32,000 nucleotides of DNA, taken from contig NC_006833.1 of the NCBI RefSeq assembly GCF_000008385.1, positions 450,001 to 482,000 of the forward strand, in the 5' to 3' direction. The notes below the pieces were generated by a model that did not search any database, was not told the DNA's origin, and saw only the letters and a program-made list of their open reading frames with translations. This DNA is from Wolbachia endosymbiont strain TRS of Brugia malayi (GTDB taxonomy: Bacteria > Pseudomonadota > Alphaproteobacteria > Rickettsiales > Anaplasmataceae). The translations under genes were made by a program, and so were the position numbers. This document shows positions 3,110 through 31,980 of this stretch, piece after piece. Numbering within the stretch: position 1 is the first letter of the stretch; every line of letters starts with the position of its first letter.

Positions 3110-5737
3110 ATGAAGCTAAATGAAATTAGAGAAAGATTTATAAAATTTTTTGTACGTAATAACCACAAGCAGGTTTTTTCTTCTCCTTTAATTCCAGAAC
3201 ATGACCCAACGCTTATGTTCACAAATGCTGGCATGGTGCAGTTTAAAAACATCTTTACCGGTATACAAAAAACTGACATAAAACGTGCTGTCTCGAGTCA
3301 AAAGTGTCTGAGAGTAGGCGGTAAACATAACGATCTTGAAAATGTCGGCTATACGACTCGGCACCACACATTTTTTGAAATGCTCGGAAATTTTAGTTTC
3401 GGTGATTACTTCAAAGAAACTGCGATAGAATTTGCGTGGAAATTTATCACTGAAGAATTGTCTCTTGATAAAAACAGATTGTCCATAACCATCTACCATA
3501 CTGATGATAAGTCATACGAAATTTGGCGTAAGGTAAGTGGCTTTTCAAACGATAAAATCATCAGGATTGCAACAGATGACAATTTTTGGAGTATGGGCAA
3601 TATTGGCCCATGTGGGCCATGTTCTGAAATTTTTTACGACTATGCAAAGCCTAATCTACAGAACGATGACAGAATTGTTGAAATCTGGAATCTAGTATTC
3701 ATGGAATTTAATAAAGATGAGGAAGGCAATTTGCAAAAATTGCCAAAAAAATGCATCGATACTGGTATGGGCCTTGAGAGAGTAGCTGCTGTAATGCAAA
3801 ACGTCTATGATAACTATGACATTGATCTATTTTCCGCTCTGATAAGTAAATCACAGGAATATTGTGGAAATGTAGAGAATAAAGCAGCACATAAGATCAT
3901 TGCAGATCACCTTCGTGCAGCTGCATTTCTCATTGCAGAAGGGGTACTCCCTGGAAATGAAGGTAGAAATTATATATTACGCAGATTAATCAGGAGAGCC
4001 GTGCGTTACATTCATCAACTTGGATATAATGATCCCCTACTCCATCGCATTTTTCCAGTGCTGATAGATAGCACAAGTTCAGCTTATATGGGAGGTGTCT
4101 ATCCTGAATTAATCAGAGCTAAAAGCTTAATAGAAACGACATTAAAATCAGAGGAAGAAAACTTTAAAGACACTCTGATAAAAGGTATTAATCTTTTGAA
4201 GAAATTCACTACAGATTTGAAACCAGGCGATACTTTATCGGGAGAGTCAGCGTTTAAACTATATGATACTTACGGATTTCCTTTAGATATCACACTCGAT
4301 ATTTTAAAAGAAAGAAAAATAAATTTCGATCAAAAGGGTTTTGATAATGCAATGGAAGAACAGAAAGAAAGAGCACGTGCTAAATGGACCGGATCTGGTG
4401 AAAAATCCATTGAGCAAATATGGTTTAATTTGATTGATAAATTTGGCAAAACAGAGTTTGTTGGTTATGAGTTTAGTGAGGTAAAGGATGCGAAAGTACT
4501 AGTCATACTTTCCTCTAAAAATGAAGTAATTGATTCTGCAAAAGAGGGAGAGAAGATAACCATTATACTTGATAAAACACCTTTTTATGGCGAATCAGGT
4601 GGACAGGTGGGAGATACTGGTAGTTTCATTATCCCTTCTATCACCCCAGTGCTTGATACTAAGATCCAGAAAAAAAATGATAGGTCATGCGATCGTATTA
4701 CTGAAGGTATAGCTATAGTAGAGAATACCAATAAAGTTAATGACCTATACTTACACAGATGCATAGTTAAATCTGGCTCAATTTGTAAAGATGACATAGT
4801 TACAGCAAGCACTGACAAGGAAAGAAGGCAAAACCTAAGAAGAAATCACTCAGCTACACATCTTCTGCACTTTGCATTAAGAAAAATCTTGGGTGATCAT
4901 GTCACTCAAAAAGGTTCCCTAATTGCACCAGATAGATTACGATTTGACTTCAGTCATAACACTCAAGTTACTCGCGATCAGCTGTCTTTGATAGAAGATA
5001 TGGTAAACTCTTTAATCAGAGAAAATCTTTCCGCATTCACAAAAATTCAGAGCATGAATCAGGCAATAGGTGAAGGGGCTATGGCACTATTCGGTAAAAA
5101 ATATGGCGATCAAGTTAGAGTTGTAAACATTGGAGATTCAAAAGAGTTATGTGGTGGCACACACGTGGAGCGTACTGGAGAAATTGGTTTATTTAAGATA
5201 ATAACAGAATGTTCCATTGCATCTGGAGTAAGAAGAATCGAAGCTTTAACCGGTCAAGAAGCAATTGATTATGCACGTGATAATGAAATCAACTTAAGAA
5301 AAATTGCAGAACTCGTAAAAGCGCCAGTAAATGAAATAACAAGCCGGTTAAGTATTTTAAACCAAGAGCGCAAAGAGTCCGAAACTAAAATAAAAAGCCT
5401 CTACAAAAAGCTTGTAAGCGCAGAAAACATAAAAAGCATTGAAATAAATGGAATGAATTTCGTAAGCCACTCTTTTACTGACATTCCAGCAAATATAGTA
5501 AGGGAATTCACTTTACAGCAACAAAAACCAAAAACGGTAATAGCTTTTACGGCAATGGAGAAAAATAAAACAGTGTTGATCGTTAAAGTAAGTAAAGATT
5601 TAGTCGATAAAATTAGCACGAAAGAACTGGTATCTACTGTAACTGGGGGAGTTTGTGGTGAAAATGCTGAGCTCACTCAAACAGGCTGTGATAGTAGTGA
5701 TATTTTCACAGCTATTTACAGTTACTTAACAAGATAG
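3110..5737 (+). CDS. alaS: alanine--tRNA ligase
   Basis: 875-aa ORF with class II AlaRS blocks [23 protein letters not shown] and [18 protein letters not shown]. The editing-domain motifs HSATHLLH and CGGTHV are also present. Confidence 0.95.
4639..4716 (+). repeat. decayed palindromic repeat element inserted in frame in alaS
   Basis: tatcaccccagtgcttgatactaagatccag...tcatgcgatcgtattactgaag aligns with the ileS element tgtcatcccagttcttgacagtgggatccag...tcacgtgctggaatgacactgaag. I count 23/30 matches in the first arm and an identical actgaag end. It encodes [24 protein letters not shown] between GGQVGDTG and the barrel domain. Confidence 0.6.
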
Positions 5738-8459: not shown

Positions 8460-11400
8460 TTAACAATTTAGCTCAATACCAACAATTAAATCTTGGTATT
8501 CTTTAGAATAAAAATTGTCTCCAATTTCTATATTAATTTCTAAAGATAAGGAAAGAGTCTGCTCTCTTATATACTCACCCCACGTATTTATTGCTCTTTT
8601 AATTTTCTCATCTTCGGTTTTGATTATTACTCTGATTCTATCGGATATATGAAAGTCAGCTTGCTTTCTGGCTTCCTGAATAAGCCTTACAACATCTCTT
8701 GCAAGCCCCTCTAGAACCAGAGCATCATCTAAGGCAGTATTCAGGATAACAATCCCTTTGTTGTCACCAAACACAGAAGAGTATTCACTGTTCGTCTTTA
8801 ATAATAGCTCATATTCGTCTTTCTCTATAATGTAGCTTTCTGACTCATTGCCTAAAAATACTTGCTCATTATCAACTTGCTTCCATTTCCCCTCCTTGAC
8901 ATATTGAACTAGTTTCTTGACCTTGTCTGGAATTCTTTTCCCAAGCATAGGGAAGTTTAGTTTCAACTCCAATGATGCAATACCTTCAAGGCTATTTACT
9001 AATTTTAGCTCTTTCACGTTTACTTCATCTTTTATCATCTCTTGGTATTCATTCATGCTCGTTTTCATCTCGGCGTTTGACCATTTCTTCTCTTTCTGGG
9101 TCCCGGTGTCACGCATTGGGATGACAGGAGAGAATTTTGGAATAACAACAGAAAGTGGCTTACTTTCAAGAAAACTGCAGGAGGACTGATGATAAACGGT
9201 CATACTACCAAGTGGCTGTCTGACACGTATATTGAAAGTGTTTCTAATAGATAATGCAGAGTTGCATATTTCTCTTACCAAATCCATCTTGGCAATGAGT
9301 TCACTATCATACCTCTCTAACTGTGGAAAATCAGCCAAATGAACAGATATTTCTTTATACTTAAGCCCCTGCCATATAGTCTCTGTTATAAGTGGCAACA
9401 AAGGAACTGCGGCTCTTAATATGTAATAAAAAACCGTATATAGAACATTGTAAGCATCAGTTTTATCTTGGTCCAAGTTACTTTTCCAAAAACGCTCACG
9501 ACTGCGACGAATATACCAATTATTTAGTACTTCAAAAAAATCTATCAGAATTTTACAAGCTTCTTGGGAATTATAGTTGCTCATAGAAGCTTGGATACTT
9601 TCCACAGCCTCAAAGCATTTGAAAATCATGTAGGAATCAATAGTACTTTTATAGTCCTTACAAACTTCAGCTTTAATTCCGTCTGCGTTTGCGTACATGG
9701 TAAAAAAGTGATAACTATTCCAAATAGGTTTCATTACGTTTTTCAGAACGTCCCGTATTGAGCTTCCTTCTTTATTAAGGAATAAATTGCCACCACAAAC
9801 AATAGATCCAGAAAGCATAAGAAAACGCAGTGCATCAGAACCATATTTATCAAAAACCTCCATCGGGTCTGCATAATTATTTAAACGTTTGGATAATTTT
9901 TGTCCTTTTACATCGAGAACTACACCGTGACATATGCAGTTCTTAAATGGTTCACTGTCAAATAAAGCAGTGGATAACACAAAAAGCGTATAGAACCACC
10001 CTCTTGTTTGTGCTATATATTCAGTAATAAAATCTGCGGGGAAGTTACTCTCAAACCACTCTTTATTTTCGAACGGATAGTGAACTTGTGCAAATGGCAC
10101 CGAGCCAGATTCAAACCAACAGTCAAACACGTCAGGTACACGACGCATAATCGATTTTCCTGTTGGGTCATCAGGATTTGGTCTTGTTAAAGAATCAATA
10201 AATGGTCTGTGTAAATCATTCACTTTAACATTAAAATCTCTTTCTAATTCTGCTATTGAACCATATACATCCACCCTTGGATATCTTGCATTATCTGATT
10301 TCCATATAGGAATTGGCGTACCCCAAAACCGGTTGCGAGAAATCGACCAATCATGTGCTCTTTCAAGCCACTTTCCAAATTGACCATCTCTTATGTGAGT
10401 TGGTATCCAATTAACTCTCTTATTCAGCTCAATCATTCTCTCCTTGAACTTTGTTACAGCAACGTACCAAGAAGGCATAGCGCGATAAATCAAAGGAGTG
10501 TCAGTCCTCCAGCAGTGAGGATAATTGTGTATATATTGTTCAGTTTTGAACCAATTTCCTTGCTCTTTTAACTTCTTTATTATCGCATCATTGGTATCAA
10601 AAACGTGAATTCCTGTTAAATCTGAAACTTCAGCAGTAAATCTTCCACTGTTATCAATTGGACAAATGGCTGGAATATCATGGCTTTGACATAAGTAAAA
10701 ATCTTCTTCACCAAACCCAGGAGCAGTGTGTACAACACCAGTACCATCTTCTCCTGTAACATAATCAGCAATGAAAACACGAAATGCATTCTTCGTACCT
10801 TTAAAATAATTAAACAGTGGCTTATAAGAAAGACCTGCTAGGTCATCTGCTTTAAGTTTTGTATTGCAGTTTTCATATGGAATATTGTTTTGTTCACAAT
10901 GACCGATAAATTTTTCCAGGTAGTCTTCAGCAAAGATATATATCTCATTATTTACTAGACTTACTTCATTGTCCTCTGTTACCGTCTCAGTGCCTTCTTC
11001 TGTCATCCCAGTTCTTGACAGTGGGATCCAGGTTTCTTTTTCTCTAGATTCCAGTGTCACGTGCTGGAATGACACTGAAGAGTGAACTGACACTGCACAA
11101 TACTCAATATCTTTTCCTATCGCTAAAGCCAAGTTACTCGGCAACGTCCAAGGAGTTGTAGTCCAGGCAAGTAATTTACATTTTTGTTTAAACTGCTGTG
11201 GATTTTCTAAAAGCTCAAATGCAACAGTTACAGCTTTGCTAGTCTTTTTCCTATATGCAGTATCAAGCCTTGTTTCAAAATTAGATAACGGAGTTTCACA
11301 TGCCCAACTGTATGGAACAACGCGCACCGATTCATATACCAGACCTTTATCATAAAGCTGCTTAAACGCCCATATGACCGACTCCATGAATGACCTATCC

Positions 11401-11870
11401 ATGGTCTTATAGTCATTATGAAAATCTACCCACCTTGCCTGCCTATTTACATACTTTTCCCATTCTGATGAAAATTTCATCACAGAAGTACGGCAATAGT
11501 TATTGAATTTTTCAATGCCAAATTTTTCTATCTCAGTTCTGCCAGATATTCCAAGTTCCTTTTCTGCCCCCATCTCAGCTGGCAGCCCATGACAATCCCA
11601 ACCAAATCTACGTTCAACCTTTTTTTGAAGCATAGTTTGATATCTCGCAAATGCATCCTTTATGAAGCCAGTGAGTAAGTGCCCATAATGTGGAAGTCCA
11701 TTTGCAAATGGAGGTCCATCGTAAAAGACAAAACAATTATCCTTAGAACGTTTCTCAACTGACTGCTCAAAAATTTTGTTTTCCTGCCAAAATTTTATGA
11801 TTTCCTTTTCTAATGATGAAAAATCAGGGCTGCTTATTGTATCAGGGTAATGCTTTGGCTTCATGTTCAC
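8460..11870 (-). CDS. ileS: isoleucine--tRNA ligase (long, eukaryote-like type 2 form)
   Basis: 1136-aa ORF with the HIGH-type motif PHYGHLLTG, the KMSKS-type motif KLSKRL and the editing-domain motif TTPWTLPSN. Confidence 0.95.
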   Translation of the reverse strand: MNMKPKHYPDTISSPDFSSLEKEIIKFWQENKIFEQSVEKRSKDNCFVFYDGPPFANGLPHYGHLLTGFIKDAFARYQTMLQKKVERRFGWDCHGLPAEMGAEKELGISGRTEIEKFGIEKFNNYCRTSVMKFSSEWEKYVNRQARWVDFHNDYKTMDRSFMESVIWAFKQLYDKGLVYESVRVVPYSWACETPLSNFETRLDTAYRKKTSKAVTVAFELLENPQQFKQKCKLLAWTTTPWTLPSNLALAIGKDIEYCAVSVHSSVSFQHVTLESREKETWIPLSRTGMTEEGTETVTEDNEVSLVNNEIYIFAEDYLEKFIGHCEQNNIPYENCNTKLKADDLAGLSYKPLFNYFKGTKNAFRVFIADYVTGEDGTGVVHTAPGFGEEDFYLCQSHDIPAICPIDNSGRFTAEVSDLTGIHVFDTNDAIIKKLKEQGNWFKTEQYIHNYPHCWRTDTPLIYRAMPSWYVAVTKFKERMIELNKRVNWIPTHIRDGQFGKWLERAHDWSISRNRFWGTPIPIWKSDNARYPRVDVYGSIAELERDFNVKVNDLHRPFIDSLTRPNPDDPTGKSIMRRVPDVFDCWFESGSVPFAQVHYPFENKEWFESNFPADFITEYIAQTRGWFYTLFVLSTALFDSEPFKNCICHGVVLDVKGQKLSKRLNNYADPMEVFDKYGSDALRFLMLSGSIVCGGNLFLNKEGSSIRDVLKNVMKPIWNSYHFFTMYANADGIKAEVCKDYKSTIDSYMIFKCFEAVESIQASMSNYNSQEACKILIDFFEVLNNWYIRRSRERFWKSNLDQDKTDAYNVLYTVFYYILRAAVPLLPLITETIWQGLKYKEISVHLADFPQLERYDSELIAKMDLVREICNSALSIRNTFNIRVRQPLGSMTVYHQSSCSFLESKPLSVVIPKFSPVIPMRDTGTQKEKKWSNAEMKTSMNEYQEMIKDEVNVKELKLVNSLEGIASLELKLNFPMLGKRIPDKVKKLVQYVKEGKWKQVDNEQVFLGNESESYIIEKDEYELLLKTNSEYSSVFGDNKGIVILNTALDDALVLEGLARDVVRLIQEARKQADFHISDRIRVIIKTEDEKIKRAINTWGEYIREQTLSLSLEINIEIGDNFYSKEYQDLIVGIELNC
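9096..9126 (-). repeat. half palindromic element in frame in ileS
   Basis: The minus strand reads tgtcatcccaatgcgtgacaccgggacccag. It encodes PVIPMRDTGTQ. The same arm occurs at 11001-11031 (plus strand) and 4639-4669. Confidence 0.55.
11001..11080 (+). repeat. nested-palindrome repeat element inserted in frame in ileS (antisense to the gene)
   Basis: tgtcat-cccagttcttgacagtggga-tccagg...attccagtgtcacgtgctggaatgaca. Inner hairpins are atccca/tgggat and ttccag/ctggaa, with outer tgtcat/atgaca. The minus-strand frame stays open and encodes SVSFQHVTLESREKETWIPLSRTGMT. Confidence 0.75.
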
Positions 11871-11928: not shown

Positions 11929-13293
11929 TCATTCCTGTAGTTCACGCCCTAATAGGCTATTTTGCCAAGCTTCCAATATCCTTACATTCACTATCTTATC
12001 TCTACATTTATCTTCAGGATCATCAATGCACACCGATTGCATATATGGGCTTTTACCAATAATTTGGTTTTGGTGTTTACCTTTTTTATTGCTAAATAGA
12101 ACAGGTATAGTTTTACCTACCATACTCTGGTTAAACTCAAGTTGTTGCTTATTAATCAACTTCTGTAAATGAAGGAGGCGTTCTGTTTTAACCTTTTCTG
12201 GTACCTGATCTTTTCTTTCTGCCCCTGGCGTACCTGGCCTTGTGCTGTATTTAAAGCTATAAGCCTGAGCATACCTAACTCTTTCCACTAATTTTATAGT
12301 CCCTTCAAAGTCTTTTTCGGTTTCTCCAGGAAAACCAACGATAAAGTCAGAGGAAAATTCGATTTTGGGTTTCAATTTGCGAAATCTTTCTATTATTTCT
12401 AAATATTCCTCTGTAGTGTATTTTCTGTTCATTGCACGCAATATCTTATTCGAACCTGACTGCACAGGCAGGTGAATAAATGGCATAAGTTTTGGTGCCT
12501 CCGCATGTGCCAAGTAAAGAGACTCATGCATATCCCTTGGGTGAGAAGTCGTATAGCGAATTCTTTCTAGTTTTTCAATTTTAGCAATATGACTAATTAA
12601 TTTTCCTAAATCCCACACTTCCCCTTCGTATTCGCCATGATAAGCATTAACGTTCTGACCAAGTAAATTGATTTCTTTTGCCCCATTTGCAACTAATTTC
12701 AATGCTTCACGGAATATTTCATTTACTGGACGTGAATATTCAGCTCCGCGAGTATATGGCACCACACAAAATGTACAAAACTTATCGCAACCCTCTTGTA
12801 TAGAAAGAAATGCAGAAGATCCTTGGCTATTACCATAGCATTCATCTGATAATCTATCAAACTTCATAACCTTAGGAAAATCAGTGTTTATCACATGACC
12901 TTTACTTCTGCTTGCTTTAACTATCAGCTCTGGCAGGGTAGTTATGCTCTGTGGGCCAACAACAATATCAACAAAAGGTGCTCTTCTAAATATTTCTTCT
13001 CCCTCTGCTTGTGCAACACATCCCGCTGCCACTATAGTAATTTCTTTATTTTTTCTTGATGAATGAATTTTCCCAAGCTCAGAATAAAGCTTTTCTGCTG
13101 CTTTCTCTCTAATATGACAGGTATTAAGTATTACCAAATCAGCTTTTTCTACATCATTAACAACGTTAAACCCCAAAGGTTTAATTATATTTTCCATTAA
13201 AATGGAGTCATAAACGTTCATTTGACAGCCATAAGTTTTGATATATAAGCTTTTCATGCTTTTATTATTTGGCATGTTTTTTAATCTTTTCAC
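11929..13293 (-). CDS. miaB: tRNA-2-methylthio-N6-dimethylallyladenosine synthase
   Basis: Contains the MTTase N-domain [14 protein letters not shown], the radical-SAM motif [15 protein letters not shown] and a C-terminal TRAM-like region. The true start may be the internal Met just before [10 protein letters not shown]. Confidence 0.9.
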
Positions 13294-13299
13294 TCTATA

Positions 13300-13525
13300 C
13301 GTAAATGTCTAAACACATGCACCGATATCGTTCCAGCACATGGCGCTGGTGTACTTATCACAAGTATGTATAATAGATTTTTATGGAATAATACAAAAAA
13401 CTCGATTCTAGTGTCAAGCACATAGCTGTACGAATATTGTAATTTTAGTCCACCAAGGTGGTGTCATTCTAGTGCCCCTTCTTGTCATTTAAGCAGTTGA
13501 CACTGGGATCTCACTTTTACACATT
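13300..13525. repeat. cluster of degenerate palindromic-element copies
   Basis: gttccagcacatggcgctggtgtac, gattctagtgtcaagcac, caccaaggtggtg and gtgtcattctagtgcc...cttgtcatttaagcagttgacactgggatctcac. These carry the same arms (gtcat, ccagtg, ttgacactgggat) as the ileS and alaS elements. Confidence 0.6.
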
Positions 13526-13528
13526 GGA

Positions 13529-13843
13529 CCACAAATATTAAGAAATTTATCAAGTAAAGAAAAAAGGTAAAAGGACTCCATATAGAAGTTGCTCACTCTC
13601 TAATCCTGTAAATTGCCGTACTATGCTGTCTTAAACGTTTTATAGGTGCGTTTCGATTTGTATAGGTAAAAACCTGAAATCTAGGTAAGATTTATAAAGG
13701 CATGAGGTGTACATAGTGCAAAAGTTAAAAAATAAGAAGCCAGCCCCGTTATACTCTTGTCGTTTAATCTGTACAGGTTGAGGATAAATAAACACCTTCA
13801 ATCTCATGATAAAGGATTGGTAAGGTTTATCAAGTAGTTTTTT
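13529..13843 (-). repeat. copy B of the ~300-bp intergenic repeat family
   Basis: All conserved blocks are present on the minus strand. TTGATA (13833-13828), a 16-nt spacer, then TATCAT (13811-13806). The palindromic box tgtacatagtgca is at 13708-13720. An 11-bp direct repeat tttatcaagta occurs at 13546-13556 and 13826-13836. The promoter end points towards miaB. Confidence 0.7.
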
Positions 13844-25679: not shown

Positions 25680-25990
25680 GTAATAAATATTTTAGAAATT
25701 TACCAGATAAAAAAAGGCAAAAGAAGCTTCTCTGATGGCTAGTTATTTATATTAACTTTGTAAATTGGTGTTTTTTGTTGTCTTAAACACTTTAACAAGT
25801 GTATTTTACACTTATACTAAGTAAAAACCTTGAAAGTTTATAAAGACACGAGGTGCACATAGTACAAAAAATAAAATACAAGACGCCAAGCATGTTAAGT
25901 TTTTTACCGTTTAGCCTACACAGACTGAAGACAAATAACAACCCCAGTACTATAGTAAAGGGGTCAGCAGACTTATCAAGTAGTTTTTTT
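25680..25990 (-). repeat. copy C of the ~300-bp intergenic repeat family
   Basis: The conserved blocks are present on the minus strand. TTGATA (25979-25974), a 16-nt spacer, then TACTAT (25957-25952). The palindromic box tgcacatagtaca is at 25853-25865. The promoter end points towards the recombinase pseudogene. Confidence 0.65.
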
Positions 25991-31575: not shown

Positions 31576-31878
31576 AAAAAGCTACTTGACAAATCTTGCC
31601 AACCACTATAGCACTGAAGTATTCAGTCATCTTTAATCTGTGCAGATTAAATAACAAAGTATCACGTAGTTAGCATCTTATGTTTAATTTTTTGCACTAT
31701 GTGCACCCTTACTTCTTTACAATATTTCTTAGGTTTTTACCTATATAAGCTGGAACGCGCTTATAAAGCATTTAAGACAGTATAGTACGCCAATTTGCAA
31801 GATTAGAGAGTAAACACTATCTGCTCGAGATATCTTTTGCCTTTTTTTCTATTTAATAAATCTCTTAATGTTTGTAGC
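31576..31878 (+). repeat. copy D of the ~300-bp intergenic repeat family
   Basis: All blocks are present on the plus strand. TTGACA is at 31586-31591, but only a weak -10 follows (tatagc after 15 nt). A perfect palindromic box tgcactatgtgca lies at 31693-31705. An internal hairpin tataagc/gcttata is also present. Confidence 0.7.
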
Positions 31879-31880
31879 TA

Positions 31881-31980
31881 CTGTCATCCCGCTACTTGTT
31901 AGCAGGACCTAGAGATGCCACAAATGAATTGCGAGATAACGTAGGGCTGCGATACCCCAGCGCGTGATGCTGGTTTCTCA
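31881..31980. repeat. palindromic-element copies directly abutting repeat copy D
   Basis: ctgtcatcccgctacttgttagcaggacc and ccccagcgcgtgatgctggtttc. The arms match those of the elements at 11001-11080 and 13300-13525. Confidence 0.55.

Follow-up and report, generated by a model that had tools for sequence, protein, structure and literature searches.

An in-frame palindromic insertion, probably a Wolbachia palindromic element, in the isoleucyl-tRNA synthetase gene of the Brugia malayi endosymbiont wBm

How does a palindromic repeat come to lie within the uninterrupted reading frame of a gene for an essential enzyme? This question is raised by ileS, the gene for isoleucyl-tRNA synthetase (IleRS), in a stretch of 32,000 nucleotides (nt) from the genome of wBm, the Wolbachia endosymbiont (strain TRS) of Brugia malayi (hereafter the window, to which all unprefixed nucleotide positions refer). 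A first-pass annotation of these letters had described two hairpins enclosed by an outer inverted pair within ileS, an extra stretch of about 45 amino acids (aa) shortly after the editing-domain motif TTPWTLPSN and a resemblance to the Rickettsia palindromic elements (RPEs), and had supposed that the host was a Wolbachia. The comparisons reported here agree with that description in most respects and assign the feature, with a probability of about 0.9, to the Wolbachia palindromic elements (WPEs), relatives of RPE-4/6/7, the family name being taken from the papers that cite its description and from the domain model TIGR02697.

The host gene occupies positions 8460..11870 on the minus strand and encodes 1136 aa from a GTG start (1134 aa as annotated); the minus-strand open reading frame (ORF) reads TTPWTLPSNLALAIGKDIEYCAVSVHSSVSFQHVTLESREKETWIPLSRTGMTEEGTETVTEDNEVSLVNNE around the element and, as had been noticed, remains intact throughout. 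From the second methionine, its product is letter for letter the IleRS of wBm (AAW70951.1/Q5GSS3), which settles the identity of the supposed Wolbachia host. This product scores 878 bits against TIGR00392 (cutoff 621), human cytoplasmic IleRS is the solved structure that it matches best in sequence, and the AlphaFold2 (AF2) model of the enzyme has the type-2 IleRS of Priestia megaterium (8c9d, 8c8v) as its best Foldseek match (TM-score 0.84); by both sequence and fold, the host enzyme is a type-2 (eukaryote-like) IleRS. The motif TTPWTLPSN (aa 238-246; 11133..11159, minus strand) lies 17 residues upstream of the insertion, and in 131 aligned IleRS its core, TPWTLPS, is invariant, with the flanking T and N near-invariant.

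The distinction between an insertion and an ancestral part of the enzyme was drawn from a protein alignment of 22 Wolbachia IleRS (with ileS loci taken from 80 genomes) and from the wider alignment of 131 IleRS, 110 of them non-Wolbachia. The 22 Wolbachia sequences vary at three sites. Site 1, after ...IEYCAVSV, holds 44 residues in wBm, and site 2, after ...SSCSFLE, holds 37; site 3 is described below. All three sites are empty in the nearest non-Wolbachia relative (an Anaplasmataceae metagenome-assembled genome, MAG; 68% identity), as well as in every sequence sampled from Rickettsiaceae, Midichloriaceae, Megaera and free-living alphaproteobacteria. In the 110 non-Wolbachia type-2 IleRS, the occupancy of the insert columns is 0.09 and 0.10, as against 1.0 in the flanking columns 240-260 and 941-960, and phmmer alignments to solved IleRS structures stop at 260/261 and restart at 332-344, then stop again at about 901-905 and restart at 941-944. 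At the nucleotide level, empty Wolbachia alleles read GCAGTATTAGT joined directly to AAATGGTGAA, identical to the outgroup, and wBm carries 132 additional bases at this junction. Cleanly empty alleles of site 1, with a normal IleRS, are found in wPip, most of supergroup B and supergroup F. The lineage-specific insertion that had been suspected is, as far as these alignments can tell, confirmed: the site-1 segment is specific to Wolbachia and not ancestral.

The insertion at site 1 (10953..11084, minus strand), as delimited by filled and empty alleles, comprises 132 nt that encode aa 263-306 (HSSVSFQHVTLESREKETWIPLSRTGMTEEGTETVTEDNEVSLV) in the CP1 editing domain, so that the extra stretch measures 44 aa. 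Sequence, fold and covariance model together define within it a palindromic core of 72 nt (11002..11073, no strand assigned), which runs from GTCAT to ATGAC and consists of two hairpin units; terminal inverted repeats are present, and the palindrome reaches beyond the core to approximately 10996-11081. The plus-strand palindrome quoted earlier is found at 10998-11080, and the peptide SVSFQ...TGMT corresponds to aa 265-290 (11001-11078). The 111 nt around the core fold, as RNA, with -44.7 kcal/mol, compared to -27.6 +/- 3.6 kcal/mol in dinucleotide shuffles (z -4.75), a stability that no shuffle out of 200 attains. Separately sequenced Wolbachia, namely wBp, wWb (from Wuchereria bancrofti), wLsig, wLbra, wDimm and others, carry the same insert. 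The notion of a chance palindrome or of an assembly artefact in one genome is refuted by these two observations and retains practically no probability.

The description of the element as two hairpins within an outer pair appears to be a fair one. In a structure alignment of 12 copies, drawn from sites 1 and 3 of ileS in different Wolbachia, two local hairpins with a short outer stem leave 88% of the cells paired and covary more strongly than 499 of 500 shuffles, evidence that is modest because the aligned copies are mutually related. A single long hairpin was also considered as the conserved structure and rejected (82% of the cells paired, covariation no better than in shuffles); for an individual element sequence, either fold is possible. 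Scans for promoters and terminators around the element yielded nothing above shuffles, and a tRNA scan of the window gave no match. The remainder of the insertion is a tail (EEGTETVTEDNEVSLV; 10953..11000, minus strand), recognized in both the DNA and the protein alignment, which seems to be a degenerate second copy of the terminal CACTGGGATGACAGA segment and in other strains is enlarged to a varying number of 'GMTxxxxx' units. More generally, the terminal segment, CTGGGATGACAGA..., which encodes xGMTxxxx, occurs in tandem copy numbers that vary by strain and by gene, with expansions in the site-1 tails of the IleRS proteins P0021, P0035 and P0117 and in the Mur ligase P0245 (e.g., GMTPGITGMTPGITGMTPGATGMTP); this segment behaves like a small coding minisatellite attached to WPEs.

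To what extent the element is dispersed was assessed with a covariance model built from 12 Wolbachia ileS copies, including the site-1 copy of the window and excluding the remaining sites of the window. The model retrieves the full site-1 copy on both strands of 11002-11073 (E 4e-18; 88 and 47.7 bits), a copy that was used in building it. Two further copies in the window had been missed by the first-pass annotation: an arm at ileS site 2, in the orientation opposite to that of site 1 (9067-9125, E 4e-4), and a possible half-WPE in frame in alaS (4640..4693, plus strand; aa 511-536 of the alanyl-tRNA synthetase, AlaRS; 25.4 bits, E 6e-4), where wBm has 26 residues and P. horikoshii AlaRS, the only AlaRS compared, has 4. 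The arms had also been reported to recur in noncoding DNA, and they do, not as full copies but as degenerate intergenic half-copies upstream of miaB (13484..13529, E 0.014) and at 31883..31940 (E 0.015), neither assigned to a strand, accompanied by a weak piece near miaB (13327-13378, E 0.33) and a weak second arm (31957-31973, E 0.95), both intergenic. The alaS copy and the two half-copies belong to repeat family D1. Outside the window, the model finds orthologous ileS copies in other Wolbachia loci and, in addition, copies that are not part of ileS (L003 374-435, L006 855-929, L007 870-942). When 1.84 billion representative proteins were searched with a profile of the peptide encoded at site 1, 41 clusters (50% identity) were retrieved at E<=1e-3; the block SFQ(R/H)VTLESxxKExWIPVSSTGMT lies in frame within a Mur ligase, a biotin ligase (P0249), IspDF, TruB and a 697-aa protein. 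Many of the matches are tiny ORFs, which is consistent with translated intergenic copies. Thus, in the window, at other Wolbachia loci and in unrelated Wolbachia proteins alike, the sequence is a dispersed repeat, as had been claimed.

Such repeats are not new. The WPE family was described in Wolbachia by Ogata, Suhre and Claverie (Trends Microbiol 2005), as cited in PMC4224334, PMC3767692 and PMC3733652, and NCBIfam includes a curated model of the WPE domain, TIGR02697 (WPE_wolbac). In-frame WPE-like palindromic regions that lack stop codons are documented in addA, addB and priA (PMC4224334), and an in-frame WPE-like insert in biotin ligase (PMC3767692). The window element resembles this family in genus and strain, wBm being the Wolbachia to which WPE repeats have been attributed (PMC3733652), in being a short palindrome that occurs both in intergenic DNA and in frame in conserved genes, and in the encoded arm WIPxSxTGMTE, which fits the C-terminal part of TIGR02697. 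Because the family has been described in Wolbachia and attributed to wBm (PMC3733652), the phenomenon itself is already known: in-frame palindromic repeats in Wolbachia genes have been on record since 2005, with a curated domain model, and the present case is a clean, ordinary example.

The ATGAC motif is common to RPE-4, RPE-6, RPE-7 and WPE, for which a common origin has been proposed, and RPE-7 has been tabulated in the isoleucyl-tRNA synthetase of Rickettsia (PMC3767692). The window element shares with these RPEs the motif, the layout of two hairpins and the termini GTCATCCC...GGGATGAC. The model built solely from Wolbachia copies matches Rickettsia elements, among them copies lying in frame in Rickettsia ileS, at 25-45 bits and reaches 45 bits within a Rickettsia ileS (L021 5376-5460), which lends substance to the analogy drawn at the outset; further Rickettsia matches are located at L026 5433-5508, L020 5406-5499 and 560-634, L023 3656-3753, L028 3246-3300, and L057 1696-1745 and 2509-2558. 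However, the insertion sites in Rickettsia ileS, at approximately aa 800 and, in the Polydrusus symbiont, approximately aa 219, differ from those in Wolbachia (aa 263, 903 and ~1010), as do the stem and loop sequences and the genus. The window element is related to RPE-4/6/7 but is not a member of these families; its host is a Wolbachia.

If the insertion is a WPE, what does the gene make of it? In all 12 Wolbachia genomes that carry an insert at site 1, of 36 to 141 nt, ileS keeps an intact ORF, and of the three sense frames only one stays open across the site-1 element. In the canonical compact copy (site 3 of wCon), the arms encode VIPVLDTGIQ-MQ-IPASRAGMTE in one orientation; in the other, they encode VIPARDAGI...WIPVSSTGMT. 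At site 1 of wBm, the second arm is read in the canonical frame (WIPLSRTGMT), whereas the first arm has moved to another frame and reads SFQHVTLES in place of VIPARDTGI, since a TAG stop codon now lies in the canonical frame. Supergroup A-type alleles have lost 10 nt from the loop and gained 1 nt at a point 20 nt downstream, which offsets the loss, so that part of the peptide is encoded in another frame (SGSQCLGTGMT versus TWIPLSRTGMT) before the frames rejoin. The very stable hairpin of the transcript (-44.7 kcal/mol) is a potential RNase substrate, and one could imagine that it is removed by RNA processing, by intron-like excision or by intein-like splicing before the mature protein is formed. 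Such removal, however, would leave no reason for the maintenance of the frame and the avoidance of stop codons across many indels in every allele; furthermore, 44 aa are far too few for an intein, a scan of the window against Rfam (introns included) gave no match, and in gmk an RPE insert is translated and leaves the enzyme active (PMC2229807, a review). Removal of the hairpin before maturation of the protein is therefore extremely improbable.

The predicted place of the inserts in the enzyme comes from an AF2 model computed on the 131-sequence alignment (mean predicted local distance difference test, pLDDT, 82.6; predicted TM-score, pTM, 0.76); the 22-sequence Wolbachia-only alignment gave a mean pLDDT of 31.7, and that model was discarded. 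Four segments of the retained model have pLDDT below 50, namely residues 1-3, 190-204, 265-306 and 905-939, of which the two longest coincide with the inserts, both without predicted secondary structure. Site 1 appears to take the place of the turn that, in the CP1 editing domain, joins two confident strands (257-263 and 308-314), compatible with the surface loop that had been envisaged, and site 2 is predicted to follow strand 887-894 and precede helix 941-950, at the point of entry into the C-terminal tRNA-binding region. In this model, the inserts are predicted loop regions of an otherwise confident structure.

The divergence of the two inserts was compared with that of the remaining ileS in wBm versus four other strains. 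The rate of nonsynonymous substitution (dN) is 0.17-0.35 in the inserts and 0.034-0.063 in the remaining gene (4-6 times higher in the inserts), and the ratio of nonsynonymous to synonymous rates (dN/dS) is 0.30-0.87 versus 0.07-0.14. These values suggest that the inserts are passengers under relaxed constraint at the protein level and not a functional module, a statement that forms part of the WPE reading and carries the same probability. Could the peptide nevertheless have been co-opted as a functional, Wolbachia-specific appendage of the editing domain, with a role in editing, tRNA binding or contact with a host factor, and been kept by selection? The insertion is old, being found in the deep-branching lineages of the neighbor-joining (NJ) tree described below as well as in supergroups C, D and J; the frame is kept in every filled genome, dN/dS of the insert is below 1 in most comparisons, and the site is 17 residues away from the TTPWT editing motif. 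All this would fit co-option, but many strains (wPip, most of supergroup B, supergroup F) are cleanly empty and have a normal IleRS, the frame and the length of the peptide vary by strain, dN is elevated to the extent given above, the model predicts no structure in the insert, and the same peptide occurs in unrelated enzymes. Retention of a functional appendage is, in our view, very improbable.

The second in-frame insertion of wBm, at site 2 (9054..9164, minus strand; 111 nt, aa 903-939, SKPLSVVIPKFSPVIPMRDTGTQKEKKWSNAEMKTSM), is attributed to a WPE on the strength of filled and empty alleles, an inverted repeat and the covariance model. It has one recognizable arm (VIPMRDTGTQ), at 9067-9125, which forms an inverted repeat with 10996-11031. 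Neither supergroups B, C, E and J nor any of the outgroups have this insertion. Site 3, at approximately aa 1010, is empty in wBm and filled in some strains of supergroups A, B and E. The site-3 element is a compact, near-perfect WPE of 62 nt (VIPVLDTGIQMQIPASRAGMTE), with copies at L004 5908-5969, L014 5911-5972, L010 3058-3128 and L009 5914-6033; in wCori, the insertion at this site is enlarged to about 140 aa.

The history of site 1 was traced on an NJ tree computed from those IleRS columns that have no gaps, with the Anaplasmataceae sequence as the root. The site is filled in deep-branching lineages (supergroup E, wCori, DFT4), in supergroups C/J and D, in most of supergroup A and in two supergroup B strains; the copies of supergroups C and J are the most degenerate. 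All filled alleles have the same junction and orientation, and many share a nonpalindromic tail (GAGGACAATGAAGxAAGTCTAGTA, with variants in D, B, C and WOLB0982); from the shared junction and orientation and the often shared tail, we therefore infer one ancient insertion. The competing possibility is that elements were inserted independently, lineage by lineage, at a hot spot at one and the same nucleotide of ileS and that the empty alleles were never filled. The patchy presence and absence and the exact match of the empty alleles to the outgroup junction are as expected from such a course of events, and ileS is a frequent host because it has three sites in Wolbachia and others in Rickettsia. 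Independent insertions, however, do not sit well with the identity of junction and orientation across all filled alleles and with the common nonpalindromic tail of many, nor with the filled state of the deep-branching, C/J and D lineages and the advanced decay of the C and J copies; we regard them as improbable.

A single ancient insertion has a price. On the tree, empty alleles turn up inside otherwise filled groups on at least four occasions, namely in Ca. W. massiliensis, in a Rhagoletis-derived supergroup A strain, in the core of supergroup B and in F-like strains, so that either seamless losses or replacement by recombination are required. In wTis, a nearest-neighbor comparison of the 150 nt on each side of site 1 places the flanks closest to filled relatives, with a dip in identity, and a signature, 'NGEIHIF', is common to the empty alleles of distant strains; this shared signature hints at recombination. 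If, instead, the losses were independent, WPEs would undergo seamless excision, which would point to the enzyme that moves WPEs and RPEs, a conjecture that we consider unlikely. Seamless excision is the behavior of hairpin-recognizing single-strand transposases of the IS200/IS605 or RAYT type.

The scenario that we favor under the WPE reading can be outlined as follows. A WPE would be a short, nonautonomous selfish repeat made up of an inverted pair of hairpin units, each about 30 nt long, with GTCAT and ATGAC as its boundaries. One such element may have been inserted once, early in Wolbachia evolution, at a beta-hairpin turn of the CP1 editing domain of IleRS, and the copy would have survived since it landed in an orientation and frame devoid of stop codons, with a length that is a multiple of three, and at a site that tolerates an extra loop. 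The element would then be transcribed and translated within IleRS as an unstructured loop of 44 residues that is merely tolerated. Subsequent decay under relaxed constraint would have involved substitutions, frame-compensating indels and slippage of the terminal segment, and in several lineages the element would have been lost and the ancestral junction restored. For mobility, an enzyme that acts in trans and recognizes hairpin DNA is assumed, as proposed for repetitive extragenic palindromes (REPs) and for repeats similar to miniature inverted-repeat transposable elements (MITEs). We infer the translation of the insert, its neutrality for the enzyme and this mode of movement.

The parallels with other repeat classes are partial. 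The REPs tagged with GTAG or CGTC are thought to be moved by RAYT transposases, and RPE-4 and RPE-6 have been equated with CGTC-tagged REPs; the CGTC-4 repeats detected in the Wolbachia endosymbionts of D. melanogaster and D. simulans are reported to bear no relation to WPE (PMC3733652; Di Nocera et al. 2013). In common with REPs and the bacterial interspersed mosaic elements (BIMEs), WPEs consist of hairpin units of 20-40 nt, typically as inverted dimers. CGTC stands at the head of some WPE copies (GACGTCAT, at site 3 of wCon and WOLB0025), whereas the window copy has GTGTCAT and no CGTC. REPs are extragenic by definition, unlike the window copy, which lies within an ORF and is presumably translated. 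Bacterial MITEs (Correia, ERIC, RUP; PMC2229807) are likewise small and nonautonomous, with terminal inverted repeats and stable RNA stem-loops, and some are fused in frame to genes; the window element differs from these in that neither a target-site duplication nor a parent insertion sequence has been shown for it.

Several observations weigh against the interpretation of the inserts as WPE-derived, decaying passengers. The curated model is matched below its cutoff of 27.55 bits, with 20.7 bits for the window peptide, 16.5 for the whole protein and 23.7 for the best related copy, and the match covers profile positions 24-36 only, that is, the single arm WIPLSRTGMTE; that the match is confined to the last 13 positions is due to the first arm of the window copy being read in another frame. 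At site 1, the synonymous rate (dS) is 0.35-0.39, versus 0.66-0.68 in the remaining ileS, in the two more distant comparisons (L011 and L002; 40 codons); such a low value hints at constraint on the hairpin at the DNA or RNA level or at gene conversion between copies and is not explained by simple decay. The low pLDDT of the inserts is partly caused by the lack of aligned homologues in the insert columns. No convincing target-site duplication was detected at site 1, where the only candidate is a short direct repeat, (T)TAGT/(C)TAGT, and none is clear at sites 2 and 3. Finally, no transposase or other mobilizing enzyme was identified in the 32-kb window, where RAYT genes were not specifically searched for.

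With these reservations, ileS can serve as a teaching case of selfish DNA in an essential enzyme, given its two copies in opposite orientations, a third in other strains and natural empty controls. The only somewhat new thread is the occurrence of seamless empty alleles among filled ones, which bears on the movement of the element. In practical terms, the inserts split hidden Markov model matches to ileS into two stretches and should be masked in Wolbachia phylogenetics based on this gene, as has been done for addA, addB and priA (PMC4224334). When wBm IleRS is considered as an anti-filarial drug target, the insert loops should not be over-interpreted in models.

The surroundings of the dispersed copies hold additional repeats. 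Another dispersed repeat, of about 200 nt, occurs in intergenic DNA at 13540-13780 (plus strand), 31640-31860 (minus strand) and 25770-25920 (plus strand); its copies are 75-85% alike, two of the three adjoin WPE half-copies, and they match neither an Rfam family nor a tRNA. The loop of the WPE hairpin unit contains TTGACA, and a degenerate arm at 13417..13388 (minus strand), about 95 nt upstream of miaB (11929-13293), matches a sigma-70 promoter at 11 of 12 positions (TTGACA, an 18-nt spacer, TATTAT). WPE fragments could, judging from these letters, be donors of -35 boxes; promoter-like sites are no more numerous in this region than in shuffles.

Two further sets of proteins surfaced in the searches. 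P0250 and P0253, both G+C-rich repeat proteins, are ORFs made of many tandem copies of VIPVLVTGTH...WIPVTSTGMT and show that palindromic repeats with the same arm peptides occur in G+C-rich bacteria outside Rickettsiales. P0242 (Bm11567, a gene model of Brugia malayi) and P0283 (a hypothetical protein of Brugia pahangi) carry the wBm ileS segment NLALAIGKDIEYCAVSVHSSVSFQHVTLESREKETWIPLSRTGMTE, which in Bm11567 is joined to a fragment of leucyl aminopeptidase; these nematode gene models probably represent Wolbachia DNA that was transferred or mis-assigned to the host genome.

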